Counted from the first letter of the stretch, positions 17,859 through 61,214 are shown. The stretch: 64,000 bases of DNA from Alphaproteobacteria bacterium (GCA_963555825.3 CAUVXB020000001.1:320001-384000); one strand, 5' to 3'. Numbers and translations are program-made. The notes: generated by a model not told the origin, from the letters alone.

Positions 17859-17997
17859 GCGGGCAACGCCGCGGGGTCTGCTTCCCGCCCGTTAGCAGAC
17901 CTTAGAGACATTGAATCGCGGGACAGGGTGTTCGACGCCGGCTTACCGTTCGAAATCGGACACCGCGCGGCGCTTCCGCCAACGTCTGCCGTTGACC

Positions 17998-19681
17998 CAG
18001 CCTGTGTAAAAACGTCGATGGTGTTATGATTCTCTCGTGCTTTGGCGGGAGGGTCTGATGAAGCGTTTTGTCGAGGGTGTCGATCGCAGCCAGGGCACGT
18101 TGTTTCCGGAGCGCCTGGAAGACTGGATCGGCGACGACAACCCGGTTCGGGCGATCGACGTCTTCGTCGATGAGCTCGATCTTGGCGGCCTCGGGTTCGA
18201 CCGGGTCGAGCCGCTGGCGACCGGCAGGCCGGCCTATCATCCTTGCGATTTGTTGAAGCTCTACATCTACGGCTATCTCAACCGGGTTCAGTCGAGCCGT
18301 CGGCTCGAGAGGGAGGCCGGGCGCAATGTGGAAGTGATGTGGCTGGTCGGCCGGCTGGCGCCGGATCACAAGACGATCGCCGACTTCCGCAAGGACAACG
18401 GCCGTGCGATCCGCAAGGTCTGCGCCCGGTTCGTCGCGCTGTGCCGGCAACTCGGGCTGTTCGCCGAGGCGAGCGTGGCGATCGATGGCTCGAAGTTCAA
18501 GGCGGTCAACAGCCGGGACAGGAACTTCACGCGGGCCAAGATGGCGCGGCGGGTGGCGCAGATCGAGGAGAGCGTTGCGCGCTATCTGGACCAGTTGGAC
18601 AGCGCCGACCGGCAAGAGCCGTCGCTGGCGCGCACGACCAAGACGACTCGTCTGGCCGACAAGATCGCGATCCTCAAGGAGGAGATGCGGCGCCTGAAGG
18701 CGCTTGAAGTCGAGCGGCGTGCGAGCCCGGACCAGCAGATCTCTCTGAGCGATCCCGATGCCCGCTCGATGGCGACGAGCGGCCGGGGTTCCGGCGTGGT
18801 CGGCTACAACGTTCAGGCCGCCGTCGACACCAAGCACCACCTGATCGTCGCCCACGAGGTGACCAATCAGGGCACCGACCGCGTCCAGCTCTCAGCCATG
18901 GCGAAGCGGACCAAGGCGGCTCTGGAGACCGACGAGTTGGATGTCGTTGCCGATCGCGGCTACTACAACGGCAAGGAGATTCTGGCCTGCGATGAGGCCG
19001 GCATCACCGTCACATTGCCTAAGCCGCTGACCTCTGGAGCCAAGGCCAAGGGCCGCTTCGGCAAACAGGACTTCGTCTATCTGGCCGCCGACGATGTCTA
19101 TCGCTGCCCGGCCGGCGAGCGTTTGGTCTACCGCTTCACCAGCCAGGAGAGGGGGCTGAGCATGCGGCGCTACTGGACCAACGCCTGTCAGGGATGCGCC
19201 ATCAAGCATCGCTGCACCACGGCCAAGCAGCGCCGCATCACCCGCTGGCAGCACGAGCATGTTCTCGAGGCCGTCGAGAGGCGGCTCGACGAGCACCCGG
19301 AGGCGATGCGTCGGCGGCGCGAGACGGCCGAGCATCCCTTCGGCACCATCAAGTCCTGGATGGGCGCGACGCATTTCCAGACGAAGACGCTGAAACGGGT
19401 GAGGACCGAGATGGCCCTGCACGTGCTGGCCTACAATCTCAAGCGCGTCATGAACATCACGGGCATCGACCCGCTGATCGCGGCGATGAGGACCGCATAG
19501 GCCTCTCTGCGCCGCAAATTGCGCCCATATCCGGCCAAATCGCAGCTCACACCGGCGCCAGCCGGCCGACAGGTCCGCACGAGTGGCGAAAATCCTTAAT
19601 CCCGGAATACCCGCCGCGACGGATCATCGAAGCCAAAGACGCGCCGTACAGATCACGCAGCAAACGTTCTTACACAGTCTG
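17998..19681 (+). mobile_element. IS1182-family element (transposase 18058-19500)
   Basis: TIR CAGCCTGTGTAAAAACG / CGTTCTTACACAGTCTG; 4-bp TSD GACC; GRPAYHP, SSRRLERE, PDHKTIADFR, ADRGY, AEHPFGTIK. Confidence 0.92.
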
Positions 19682-19808
19682 GACCCGAAGCAGACATAGC
19701 GGGGAGCCGGATCAGCCCTTCCCAGAAACCGTGCTAGGACTAACGTAGGAACTGGTACAAATAATGGGGTAGGGCCACCCCATTGATTAGATTTACGCGA
19801 CTTTTAAG

Positions 19809-21449
19809 CCGACATTCCCCAGATGATATCCAAATTCGCGGAAATCGTACCACGGCCCCAACTCCAAGGGAACTCTGTTCCCATTGCAGCCATCCGATGA
19901 CATGATTTTGGTAATCGGCCAGCGCGTGGAAGGCCATTTGGTCGTTTCTCTTGCCATCCAGACACACCTCTCGTGTCGCAATCTCCTTGCCGTCGATTCC
20001 CTCGGCCTACGCCGGAGCGGGTCTTCGTCGTAGATCATCAATCAGGCTCAAGATTTTCTGGAACAAGCTTCTGGGACTGCAACCTCGGCCAATTGAAATG
20101 TGACGTACCGGCCATGGCTGACAACTTTCGCACCGATCTTGACCAGCTTCTCCCTCAGCGTCGTCAGCGACCATTGCTCCACGGCATCGGGCAACGCCAG
20201 GGTACGCATGAAGTTGCCGAGGTTATAGGCGAGTGCATGCAGCTGGAGCCGGACGGCATTGTTGCGTAACGAACGGCATGACAGCCGCGTCCACTTGATG
20301 GCGTTCTTGCCTTCCTTGATCCATTGCTCGGCAGTGCCGCGCTGATTGTAGAACGCAACAACCCGCTCGGCAGGACGGCTCAGGTTGGTGACGATGAAGC
20401 CGACGCGGGGATACAGTTCCCCTGAGTGCCACTCCACCTTGGCGACGACCCGGCGGGGCTTCGTCCAGCTACCGGCCCGATAGCTGAAGTTCGCGTAATA
20501 CCGACGAACTTCCTTCGGCGGCCGACCGACGGGGCGCTTGAGCAGGTGCGCGATGCTGTCGTGCAGCACCTTGTTGGCCGGAAGCCGGATGGCGTACTTG
20601 AAGCCTTCCGCTTCCAGAAACTCATAAACCTCGGGCGAGGCGAAGGCGGCGTCACCACGGAAATAACGCCGGAGTGTCTTGTTCCGGTATCGAGCGACCA
20701 CCGGGTCCAACACATCGCGCCATTCATGGGCGCTGTGCACGTTGCCCGGACGCAGGGCGCAACGCTCCAGATCGCCGAACTGGTTGAACACGAACAGCGG
20801 GTGATAGCACGTGCAGCCGAAGTGACCGTTGTAGGCCGTGCCCTCCTGGTCACCGTAGGTCGGGCTGACGGAGCTGTCCATGTCGAGCACGATAATCTTC
20901 GGCGGCTTGCGCTCGTTAACCTGGTCGATCCAGATGCCCAAAAGGTCAGCGAGCGCGGCGAGGTTGTCATTGGTGGCGAGTAACTCCGTCTCGAACCGGC
21001 CCATCTGGCTGGTCGATGCGCCGCCGCGCTCGACAGCCCTGCCGCCGACGATCCACCGCATCGCAGGATCGCGCCCCAGCCGGTCGGCGTCGTTCACGTC
21101 CTCGTACCCGGCGAGACGACCATAGACGGATTGGCGAAGGAGACCGATGATGCCGTGCCAACCGTTCTTGCCGGTCCGGCTGTCAGCAATAACGTCACCG
21201 GCCAGCGTGGTCAGGCCGAGGGCTTCGTCCAGTTCACGATAGGCGAGCAGACCAGCGTCTGACGTGATCCGCGAACCGTGGAACTCGAACTTCAGTCTTC
21301 GGTCGAAAAACGCCCGCAGAAGCCCCCGATCCGACTCACCCTCCAGGTTCCGCATTCGACCCACCCTCCGTCTGATCTAATCCACTGATTCTTATACAGG
21401 AATCAGACGGAAACCGCATCAGATGGATCGGTCACTTGGGGAATGCGGG
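19809..21449 (-). mobile_element. IS1380-family element A (transposase about 20007-21355, frameshift near the C-terminus)
   Basis: TIR CCGACATTCCCCAG / CTTGGGGAATGCGGG; TSD TTAAG; ITSDAGLL, LDMDSS, RGDAAF, YNQRGTAEQWIKE. Confidence 0.9.
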
Positions 21450-21471
21450 TTAAGACTAAGTGGGCGATCTC

Positions 21472-60233: not shown

Positions 60234-60564
60234 ACTAGAGCAAAGTCCGCGATCGGCATTGGCTGGAATCTATCAGCCCGCGCCAACCTTATTGGGACAA
60301 GAGGCGGTCCGCCGACCGTTCGGCCGGCTTTGATTCCATACGATTGGTGTGCGCGGCGATTGAGCGCAGGTCGTCAACGATGACCGGAAATCGAGTAAGG
60401 GTTCATCCTAATTGTACCGAACGACCAAGGCTGCTAAAATCGGCACGTCATGACAACGCAGGTTCTCTTCCTTGCTGCGATTTCGCGGCGAATTACCGAC
60501 CCGGTCCTCTCGAGGAACCGGGACGCCGTTCGTCGTTTCATCGCTGCAAAGGAGCCTGCGACCA

Positions 60565-60843
60565 ATGTTATCTGACCAATCCGCCACATCCTGTTTCTCG
60601 GTCTACGCGCCGTCGGACCCGGCGATGCTGCCGCGCGTCCTTGGCGTCTTCGCGCGCCAGGACGTCGTGCCCAGCCGCGTCGTCGCGGCGCCGAGCGAGC
60701 GCCACCCTGGCGAACTCAGCATCGACCTCCAGGTCGAGGGCATGGGCATCGCCAAGCGCGAGTACATCGCCGCGCGTCTGCGCAATCTGGTCGACGTCAC
60801 GCTGGTGCTGACCTCGGAGAAGGCGCACTACCGGGCCGCCTGA
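60565..60843 (+). CDS. Small ACT-like domain protein
   Basis: AAGGAG RBS; FSVYAPSDPAMLPRVLGVFA...LSIDLQV...LRNLVDV; 92 aa. Confidence 0.7.
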   Translation: MLSDQSATSCFSVYAPSDPAMLPRVLGVFARQDVVPSRVVAAPSERHPGELSIDLQVEGMGIAKREYIAARLRNLVDVTLVLTSEKAHYRAA

Positions 60844-61017
60844 GGCGCGCCGCCGCCGGTCGCGTCGCGGCGTCGCGCCGGACGCGCGCCGGTAGTGTCT
60901 CAGTTTGAAATTCAGCCGAAACAACGCCCGGAACGTCGGCTTTTTCAGCGGATCATGTCTGCGCTGGGCGCGACAGCGGACCTTGGCGCGTGGTCATCGG
61001 CGCAGCCGCTTTTGACC

Positions 61018-61178
61018 GATACTGTTGATAAAGTCAGGGAAAAGCGGATTCGAGACGAAATTGGCTATCATCGTCGAATTCATAAATTTCTAAGTCATTG
61101 ATTTTCTTGAAACCGCATATTTGTTGGCTCCTACAAAATCACGATTTCCGCCTCTCAAAATAGCTTATCAACAGTATC
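61018..61178. mobile_element. 161-bp MITE with GACC target duplication
   Basis: TIR GATACTGTTGATAA / TTATCAACAGTATC; GACC at 61014-61017 and 61179-61182; IHF consensus TAAGTCATTGATT at 61091-61103. Confidence 0.82.
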
Positions 61179-61214
61179 GACCCTTAGCCGACCAAGAAGC
61201 TTTTGCGGAGCAGC

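Follow-up and report, generated by a model that had tools for sequence, protein, structure and literature searches.

Evidence for a three-level hierarchy of target-site specialisation among a palindromic repeat, IS1182-type elements and an IS110-family element in an alphaproteobacterial genome

The window considered here, that is, the whole stretch of 64,000 nucleotides of DNA from an alphaproteobacterium (GCA_963555825.3, CAUVXB020000001.1:320001-384000; C1:320001-384000 in the genome coordinates used below), raises two linked questions. Why do three separate insertions, one insertion sequence (IS) of the IS1182 family and two miniature inverted-repeat transposable elements (MITEs), interrupt the same part of a repeated palindromic unit and duplicate the same four bases, GACC? 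And why is the end of one of these MITEs split in turn by an element of the IS110 family? The reading that we favour, with a probability of roughly 0.85, is a three-level hierarchy of target-site specialisation, in which a hairpin repeat would be the target of an IS1182 clade and its MITEs, and the terminal inverted repeats (TIRs) of these would be the target of the IS110-family element. The window belongs to an assembly of 6.04 Mb in two contigs, C1 and C2, with 65% G+C (genome label G000).

The three insertions of the window

The insertions and the hairpins around them are composed as follows (window positions).

17874..17901, plus strand: extra palindromic unit GTCTGCTTCCCGCCCGTTAGCAGAC, a first-hairpin match by nhmmer (C1:337874-337901, E 0.34)
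17937..17961, plus strand: hairpin 1 of unit 1, GCCGGCTTACCGTTCGAAATCGGAC (sequence and nhmmer)
17984..17997, plus strand: 5' half of hairpin 2 of unit 1, GTCTGCCGTTGACC; the left GACC is its last four bases (17994-17997)
17998..19681, plus strand: IS1182-family IS of 1684 bp with ends CAGCCTGTGTAAAAACG and CGTTCTTACACAGTCTG, imperfect TIRs of ~17 bp
19682..19695, plus strand: right GACC (19682-19685) and 3' half of hairpin 2 of unit 1, CGAAGCAGAC (sequence)
23997..24021, plus strand: hairpin 1 of unit 2, GTCAGCTTACCGCTCGAAAGCGGAC (nhmmer, E 2.7e-05)
24044..24057, plus strand: 5' half of hairpin 2 of unit 2, GTCTGCTCCTGACC, including the left GACC (24054-24057) (sequence)
24058..24231, plus strand: MITE body with IS1182-type left TIR CAGGCTGTGTAAAAAC and the inner right TIR up to the AC core (24230-24231) (11 family members aligned)
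24232..25592, plus strand: IS110-family element, IS1111-like (NF033542, Pfam), with AC on both sides
25595..26222, plus strand: tandem partial copy, 628 bp, of the 3' part of the IS110 element (element positions ~733-1360) (repeat search)
26223..26230, plus strand: AC core and outer tip AGCCTG of the split right TIR of the MITE (sequence)
26231..26244, plus strand: right GACC (26231-26234) and 3' half of hairpin 2 of unit 2, CGTTGCGGGC (sequence)
60957..60981, plus strand: hairpin 1 of unit 3, variant GTCTGCGCTGGGCGCGACAGCGGAC, with look-alike sites at C2:2449310 and C2:2482014
61005..61017, plus strand: 5' half of hairpin 2 of unit 3, GCCGCTTTTGACC, including the left GACC (61014-61017) (sequence)
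61018..61178, plus strand: MITE of 161 bp with a different TIR, GATACTGTTGATAAAG (single BLAST match in the genome)
61179..61192, plus strand: right GACC (61179-61182) and degenerate 3' half of hairpin 2 of unit 3, CTTAGCCGAC (sequence)

GACC was read directly on both sides of 17998-19681, 24058-26230 and 61018-61178, as the preliminary description of this DNA had claimed. Its further claim, that each restored site is the loop of the second hairpin of a two-hairpin unit, holds as well: the hairpin returns when the insert and one GACC are removed, and the first hairpins start where they had been placed, at about 17937, 23997 and 60957. The empty site obtained by removal of the element is GTCTGC-CGTTGACCCGAA-GCAGAC in unit 1 and GTCTGCTCCTGACCCGTTGCGGGC in unit 2. 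The intact form of the unit 3 hairpin, GCCGCTTTTGACCCGRAGCGG, is present in the two unoccupied look-alikes on contig C2. The spacer between the first palindrome and the restored hairpin measures ~22-26 nt in the three units, and with the extra palindromic unit upstream of unit 1 the repeats form a small mosaic cluster around 17874.

The element of unit 1 is assigned to the IS1182 family by its transposase, a frame of 487 codons (18037-19500) that scores 451.5 bits with NCBIfam NF033551 (cut-off 270) and matches Pfam DDE_Tnp_1_6, DUF772 and DDE_Tnp_1; it has the TIRs and the short duplication of such an element. The insertion at 24058-26230 and its relatives have the properties of MITEs, being short, lacking a transposase gene, having IS-like ends and GACC duplications and occurring in several copies. 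The third insertion agrees with the others in its GACC duplication within a hairpin unit, but belongs to a different terminal-repeat lineage. Its right half resembles, by eye, the ends of an element at C1:28281-30624, which is also found after GTCTGCATATGACC.

The hairpin repeat and its insertions across genomes

Counted by BLAST at a length of at least 1467 bp, the genome contains 30 copies of the IS1182-family element at 94.4-100% identity, plus one fragment of 286 bp. The left end is kept in 28 copies and missing in two; GACC adjoins it in 22 of the 28 and GGTC in none, and the six other left flanks are GGCC (2), GGCT, GAAC, GTCC and GATC. Both flanks are readable in 22 copies, the right end being broken by another element in six further ones, and a perfect 4-bp duplication was found in 19 of these 22, in 16 cases GACC. 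Since the variant duplications GGCT, GAAC and GTCC are alike on both sides, the length of the duplication is fixed at 4 bp. A clean duplication of this kind would fit a staggered cut by a DDE transposase. The tabulation of the flanks of IS1182 ends that the preliminary description had proposed as a check has shown that the duplications are not random. The genome has 84,417 GACC and 2,609 TGACCC sites; GTCYGS-N4 precedes only 120 of the GACC sites, and an IS1182-type end follows directly at 19 of these 120. The association of GACC and hairpin with the element is far beyond chance.

The orientation of the element relative to the hairpin is 22 to 0 in this genome and 53 to 4 in other genomes. From the reading of alignments, relatives with unlike tips (CTGG... 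and ...CCAA) keep one relation of tip to arm, and three of the four flips concern elements with like tips. GC skew, used to relate insertion orientation to the direction of replication, is weak and scrambled on both contigs, and no replichore could be assigned.

The comparison with other genomes is based on 80 loci fetched with the transposase (71-82% amino-acid identity), mostly from alphaproteobacterial assemblies, Bradyrhizobium and Methylocystis records among them. The ends were located in 68 of these loci, and at least 24 nt were available on both sides in 64. The 64 flank pairs are GACC/GACC in 51 cases, GGTC/GGTC, which is the GACC site flipped, in 4, GATC/GATC in 2 and mixed in 7; mixed pairs are expected from recombination between copies. 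In 57 sites the four duplicated bases vary little or not at all, T is found at -4 in 52, and the arms are conserved at a fixed spacing (G at -9 in 49, G at +8 in 52); the empty-site consensus of hairpin 2 derived from them is ATGTCCGCTTT-TGACCC-AAAGCGGACAT. Conservation reaches ~12 nt on each side, through the arms, so the choice of target needs more than four bases. The conserved arms at a fixed distance, together with the asymmetric loop, suggest that the enzyme may read both palindrome and loop. The IS1182 left end also adjoins the hairpin, in either orientation, in two fragmentary relatives of the same family.

The two-hairpin repeat exists as a family, as the preliminary description had proposed: the genome has 83 profile matches at E<=0.01, and unoccupied copies occur in relatives. 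The first-hairpin profile (nhmmer) finds 98 distinct loci at E<=1, which is a modest copy number. Hairpin 1 is ~25 bp long with a 10-bp stem and a 5-nt loop, its best copies being GTCCGCTTTCCGCTCGAAAGCGGAC, and is present in both orientations. It is followed by a variable spacer (~22-26 nt) and hairpin 2, and units are often placed back to back in mosaics. At C1:28217-30688, a two-hairpin unit with a MITE-like end forms an inverted repeat around a frame of 609 codons and continues for more than 100 bp beyond the unit.

The hairpin profile was built from 17 of the 22 reconstructed empty sites, five unrelated-looking sites being dropped, and 41 genomes were scanned with the hairpin pattern. G000 has no unoccupied hairpin GTCYGCNNNTGACCCNNAGCRGAC at up to one mismatch. 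G001, which belongs to the same family but to another genus, has 22 of them, G029, from a different family of the class, has 20, G018 has 4 and six others have one or two each; a reversed-pattern control gave no match in any of the 41. In five relatives two-hairpin units could be read in the unoccupied state; the assemblies available at the family level are fragmented. Mismatches to GTCYGCNNNTGACCCNNAGCRGAC number 0, 1, 2 and 3 in 5, 3, 5 and 4 of the 22 IS1182 sites reconstructed in this genome, against 0, 0, 2 and 6 unoccupied sites at the same levels, from which it follows that the good targets are almost all taken. The hairpin targets of this genome look nearly saturated. The pattern GTCNGC-N12/13-GCRGAC suggested in the preliminary description proved too loose for such counts, as its close version GTCYGS-N11-14-SCRGAC has 202 matches in the genome versus 164 and 170 after shuffling.

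The same description had likened the family to repetitive extragenic palindromic (REP) sequences or bacterial interspersed mosaic elements (BIMEs). The likeness holds in form, since these are imperfect palindromes of 20-40 bp, extragenic, repeated and arranged in mosaics in both orientations. It does not extend to an association with REP-associated tyrosine transposases (RAYTs): none of the three Y1_Tnp loci of the genome is flanked by the GTCCGC palindrome, which lacks the RAYT-flanking position and GTAG head of REPs in the strict sense. A different, GTAG-headed palindrome, GTAGGGGCGGGTTTCAAACCCGCCCCTAC, accompanies a Y1-transposase (RAYT-like) frame at C2:2726247-2729507 (L104), so the genome holds a second, classical REP-type family. 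The idea of the repeats as a safe harbour stands only to the extent that most of the sites are extragenic. At restored sites the longest spanning open frame has a median length of 138.5 codons, versus 469 at 3000 random positions, and frames of at most 150 codons span 12 of the 22 restored sites versus 3.4% of the random positions; three restored sites lie within frames of 642-881 codons.

The MITEs use the same target. Intact copies are 161-162 bp long and, in an alignment of 11 copies, have ends CAGGCTGTGTAAAAAC, compared with CAG[C/A]CTGTGTAAAAAC in the IS1182 element; the two ends of a MITE are nearly alike. About 10 of the 12 MITEs examined are in recognisable hairpin-2 loops with GACC or with a duplication that has one mismatch, and they are putatively mobilised in trans by the IS1182-type transposase. 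Targeting of the second-hairpin loop by IS1182 elements and MITEs, with a 4-bp duplication that is usually GACC, holds throughout this genome and in others. A second IS1182-family lineage, consisting of one copy of 1580 bp (401 bits) and eight MITEs of ~160 bp with the TIR GAGGCTGTTGAAAAAGT, uses the sister loop GTCTGCTCATAGCC... and gives duplications of the form RGCY, once CTAG; these duplications are perfect in five of the nine elements, one base off in three and reversed in one.

Further elements were found at the hairpins or at the IS1182 ends. An IS21-family element (265.9 bits) is preceded by GTCYGC-N3-TGA in four of six left flanks, all six of which end in TGA. Its insertions in the hairpin-2 loop include C2:1617122, C2:1405233, C2:2096601 and C1:2235901, and twice a MITE adjoins it within one loop. 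A second IS110-family element (351 bits; C2:1503422, C2:3498613 and 10 more) is always preceded by GTCTCCTTAT and lies in recognisable units in 2 of 12 copies; its left flank of 75 nt is identical in 8 of 12, and it may be located inside another repeated element or have its true end further out. An IS630-family element of ~1180 bp (118 bits, cut-off 100) has ~85 copies in the genome with duplications TNA within CTNAG. About eight of them occupy the same TTA in IS1182 right TIRs, in both orientations, which makes this TTA a hot spot and not an exclusive target; the window copies at 11754-12936 and 26900-28079 are outside IS1182 ends.

Three other explanations of the hairpin flanks compete with target choice by the transposase. 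The arms might be outer parts of the element, long TIRs carried along at each transposition: each arm, at an equal distance from its element end, is the inverted copy of the other, canonical hairpins without an insert are absent from G000, and at C1:28217-30688 a whole unit forms a long inverted repeat around an element. This explanation is largely refuted. The element copies are 99.6-100% identical while arms, loop bases and spacers differ by site, so the flanks predate the insertions and do not travel with the element; the 4-bp duplications vary yet match on both sides; relatives have hairpins and two-hairpin units free of inserts (22, 20 and 4 copies); and the inverted repeat at C1:28217-30688 extends well past the unit and fits an inverted duplication. 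A preference for the tetranucleotide GACC, or for TGACCC, with the hairpin being incidental, would explain why GACC is the most conserved part of the site. However, the genome offers the 84,417 GACC and 2,609 TGACCC sites counted above, 19 of the 120 GACC sites with a 5' arm (GTCYGS-N4) are occupied, and the arms are themselves conserved at a fixed spacing, which leaves this preference very improbable. Random insertion with survival only in harmless extragenic repeats is less probable still. It agrees with the mostly extragenic sites and with a genome crowded with ISs, but selection cannot yield one nucleotide position, one duplication and one orientation in a tiny non-coding fraction, and the identical site is used in many unrelated genomes.

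The IS110-family element, its junction and neighbouring repeats

The element at 24232-25592 is assigned to the IS110 family by NCBIfam NF033542 (252.3 bits, cut-off 140) and by Pfam DEDD_Tnp_IS110 and Transposase_20. Its transposase frame has 343 codons (24325-25356) and is followed, after the stop, by a non-coding region of 238 nt (25357-25594). Sub-terminal inverted repeats of 10 bp, TAACTCGGGG and CCCCGAGTTA, are located 6-7 and 5-6 bases from the ends. Together with the downstream non-coding region they give the element an IS1111-type structure, the fit being close and not exact, as the parts of Siddiquee et al. 2024 (PMC11187229) used here describe IS1111 elements with repeats of 11-13 bp and extensions of 7 and 3 bases.

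One target and one orientation, with no true duplication, were found for all six full copies in the genome and for 82 junctions in metagenomes. The left flank is ...GTTTT(T/C)ACAC-A in 6/6 copies and the right flank is AG(C/T)CTG-GACC in 5/6, the sixth being rearranged; in the window, the right TIR of the MITE is split eight bases from its tip. AC on both sides is most simply read as a core common to target and element. IS1182-type ends had been named as the target of this element in the preliminary description. This is borne out by the constant position of the six copies in a terminal repeat and by the wide occurrence of the junction in metagenomes; within this genome it applies to MITE ends and not to the long IS1182 copies. 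Most IS1182 ends have AGTCTG or AGGCTG next to the core, versus AGCCTG in the MITEs, and the comparison of the ends suggests that this difference could be the reason why only MITE ends are occupied.

Among the six host MITEs, three are 99% identical and the other three are 76-93% identical to everything else. With both MITE ends used, this corresponds to at least four events, the hosts falling into at least four distinct sequence groups. In one MITE the other terminal repeat also contains an IS110-type end, diverged to 74% identity.

Metagenome contigs were scanned for the exact IS110 junction, which was found in at least 120 stretches. The 80 loci analysed contain 82 junctions, and the 79 with 40 nt upstream form 63 clusters; in some, the upstream sequence corresponds to the left-end region of full-length IS1182 relatives. 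The right flank was readable in 23 cases and is, in 22 of them, an IS1182-type tip followed by GACC (11), GGTC (9) or GGCT (2). These counts indicate that the chain of hairpin, IS1182-type end and IS110 element is common in nature and is not a quirk of one genome.

The link between IS110 element and MITE could also arise from the copying of one MITE::IS110 composite instead of repeated targeting. The 99% identity of three IS110-bearing MITEs, the absence of an IS110-free member of that subgroup and the perfect GACC duplication that encloses a composite at C1:934951-936625 are in line with such copying. It does not account for the other three hosts, which are 76-93% identical to each other and to the 99% group, for hits in both MITE ends, including the diverged end in an already occupied MITE, or for the 63 distinct upstream clusters in metagenomes, left ends of full-length IS1182 relatives among them; the split terminal repeat, moreover, retains only 8 tip bases. 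Copying as the whole explanation is unlikely, though somewhat less so than the alternatives weighed for the hairpin. Repeated targeting of IS1182-type ends is the reading kept below.

How the end might be recognised is suggested by the non-coding region. It contains TCCAGGCT, an exact 8-nt match to the bottom strand of the right flank AGCCTGGA, and CTTCACACA, which is close to the top-strand left flank and core, with one mismatch to the commoner TTTTTACACA target; the TTCACACA part of it is exact in the GTTTTCACACA target variant. The two segments lie on either side of a small hairpin, and the fold of the region scores z = -2.3, a level reached by 3 of 200 shuffled sequences. A guide RNA from the 3' non-coding region is the most likely means of directing integration, the matches being suggestive only.

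The stretch was found in 20 sequencing-run rows from 7 studies, and the contigs of four runs were compared over 23900-25620. They gave no joints in this interval, and hence no circle junction or empty site. Contigs of two RNA libraries span the IS110 3' region into AGCCTGGACCC...; as contigs they show no transcript, ends or strand. In one of the runs X3, X15 and X16 the MITE TIR continues uninterrupted at 24232 and is followed by GGCC-type flanks. In the same run the IS110 right end is followed by GCCTC-GGCT, the tip of the second IS1182 lineage, whose ends the IS110 element may also use.

In four of the six full IS110 copies, the 3' end is partly repeated in tandem behind the element, over ~630 bp, 124 bp, 2 x 207 bp and 23 bp (window 25595-26222; C1:936502-936625; C2:1372476-1372885; C1:1666188-1666210). 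Each tandem junction is at an internal AC. One such site, GCTTCAC-AC-ATTG, coincides with the proposed guide segment and is similar to the true target, and the tails may result from mis-targeted recombination at such pseudo-sites.

Other repeats surround the insertions. Two IS1380-family copies follow immediately after the IS1182 copy (19700-23500), one intact (20048-21364, 392.6 bits, cut-off 180) and one split into two frames (22108-23457); an end-like repeat of 64 nt at 19705 recurs at 35945 with 80% identity. The intervals 37281-37580 and 52609-52908, with further stretches, are 100% identical and in direct orientation, 15,328 bp apart, and may mark one large direct repeat. A perfect inverted repeat of 726 nt is present at 32955-33680 and 55346-56071. 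A segmental duplication or additional IS copies probably account for these direct matches and the inverted repeat. Three tandem paralogous segments, diverged to 65-80% identity, occur at 10924, 12929 and 16352 (window 10924-16964) with an inverted relative at ~31057-31651; the IS630-family copy at 11754-12936 lies between the segments at 10924 and 12929.

Mechanism, precedents and meaning

The positions, duplications, orientations, family assignments and recurrence in genomes and metagenomes were observed directly, and they can be arranged into a mechanism of three levels. The first would be the host palindromic unit, mostly extragenic, with its two hairpins. At the second, an IS1182 DDE clade and MITEs with common 16-17-bp TIRs would insert in the hairpin-2 loop by a 4-bp staggered cut at T|GACC|C, the left end being placed toward the 5' arm, as is always the case in this genome. 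At the third, an IS1111-like element would recombine site-specifically at the AC core, GTTTTYAC-AC-AGCCTG, eight bases from the tip, and the split would probably disable the end of its host element. Recognition of hairpin and loop by the transposase, guidance of the IS110 element by RNA and inactivation of split ends are inferred from the sequence comparisons.

Several observations weigh against this hierarchy. The hairpin profile was derived from occupied flanks and is circular within G000, so that its independence comes from the relatives. Five of the 22 reconstructed IS1182 sites are at 4-5 mismatches from the hairpin pattern, the flanks at C1:2132983, at C2:2579485 and left of C2:3495401 look unrelated, and the third window site has a degenerate 3' arm (GCCGCT...GCCGAC). 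The stem test is weak, a stem of at least 5 bp being found at 14 of 22 sites versus 28% of all GACC sites. MITE orientation is mixed (7 vs 3), while that of the full IS is constant. According to the part of PMC3281130 drawn on here, a trap plasmid has captured an IS1182 member from the Alphaproteobacteria that makes a 4-bp duplication, so that insertion outside such hairpins is possible. At the third level, none of the 30 long IS1182 copies of this genome contains the IS110 element, a single insertion may lie behind three of the six MITEs with an IS110 element, and the near-equal numbers of GACC and GGTC at metagenome right flanks place the loop bases outside the strict IS110 target. The guide-RNA step is drawn from one 8-nt match and one near-match, by a rough estimate a chance 8-mer match is expected ~0.3 times, and an Rfam search of 17000-29000 found no guide-RNA family, the only match being to a snoRNA at chance level (E 0.1).

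Each tier has precedents, namely REP-targeting ISs, the hairpin preference within the IS1182 family and IS4321/IS5075 in Tn21 ends. The IS1111-type elements IS4321/IS5075 reportedly insert in the terminal repeats of Tn21-family transposons. As far as the sources at hand describe them, they resemble the present element in being of IS1111 type, in their sub-terminal repeats and in using one position and one orientation in the TIR of another transposable element; unlike their Tn3-family host, the host here is an IS1182-family IS or MITE that is itself hairpin-specific, which adds a third level. IS110 elements guided by bridge RNA are said to have been described by Durrant et al. in 2024. For IS1111-type elements, the portion of PMC11187229 cited above attributes the choice of target to a short RNA made from the non-coding region. 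The present element is like those seekRNA IS1111/IS110 systems in its DEDD transposase of ~340 aa and in a downstream non-coding region that matches both target strands, and differs from them in that its guide segments are proposed from sequence matches alone.

ISRm22, one of the ISs compared at the second tier, may since have been moved to a different family. Tobes and Pareja 2006 (PMC1525189) describe as REP-targeting ISs IS1397/ISKpn1, ISPsy8, ISRm22 and ISPa11/ISPpu9/ISPpu10/ISRm19, from the families IS3, IS110, IS4, IS256 and IS5; the term IS1182 does not occur in that paper. In common with those cases, all or nearly all copies occupy one position of a palindrome, the restored site is palindromic, hybrid duplications arise from recombination and several IS families share one repeat family. 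In contrast to them, the cut here is in the loop, the duplication is 4 bp, the orientation is fixed and the targets appear near-saturated, and the repeat is not of the E. coli or Pseudomonas REP type. Within the IS1182 family, the staphylococcal IS1272/TnSha1 also chooses hairpin-forming targets (Furi et al. 2016, PMC4923244, in the sections drawn on), and the same source cites a review according to which some IS1182 members target palindromes. IS1272, however, does not follow any primary-sequence consensus; it cuts within the stem, removes part of the hairpin and leaves no duplication, and both of its orientations occur. The elements studied here, in contrast, have a loop of defined sequence as their site, with a clean 4-bp duplication, nothing deleted and a single orientation (comparison with PMC4923244).

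The repeat itself can be compared with the CGTC-tagged alphaproteobacterial REPs (Di Nocera et al. 2013, PMC3733652, as far as the text used describes them), which have a CGTC or TGTC head, an 8-9-bp stem whose first two pairs are A/T, a 4-5-nt loop, a CCA tail and no RAYT link. Many units here likewise start with (C/T)GTC, hairpin 1 has a 5-nt loop and a RAYT link is absent. Unlike the CGTC-REPs as described in that text, the stem starts with GTCCGC and has no leading A/T pairs, the loop of hairpin 2 has 6-12 nt and the tail is AT(T).

In the literature searched, outside which fell most subscription journals and ISfinder/TnPedia, no IS1182 element in REP-like loops and no IS110 element in IS1182 ends were found. 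Within it, the three-tier nesting, the conserved and oriented loop target, the near-saturation, the retuning of sister lineages to sister loops and the wide spread of the IS110 junction appear to be new. A bolder joint reading, which we offer only tentatively and consider rather doubtful, would combine a hairpin-reading DDE clade and an IS1111-type obligate hyper-parasite into a hairpin-capped system of selfish layers. The transposase would read the arms at a fixed spacing and the asymmetric TGACCC loop, perhaps extruded or single-stranded, and would be a naturally site- and orientation-specific cut-and-paste enzyme, with sister lineages retuned to sister loops (GACC vs RGCY). The guide RNA would have evolved to fit the TIR of the clade, each IS110 hit would disable an end, and the three layers might regulate one another.

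If the three-level hierarchy is true, an IS1182 clade would have a well-defined and widely conserved target in which position, 4-bp duplication and orientation are all fixed. Oriented and precise targeting by a DDE enzyme is uncommon, and its recognition mechanism would be of interest should the reading hold. With no free canonical hairpins here versus ~20 in some relatives, the supply of landing pads may limit the spread of the IS. The end of a mobile element would be the natural target of an RNA-guided IS110 lineage across many environments, a setting useful for following how a guide RNA tracks a moving target and whether IS110 elements restrain other transposons. The hairpin and junction motifs could then be used by annotators to find nested elements and to restore interrupted ones.

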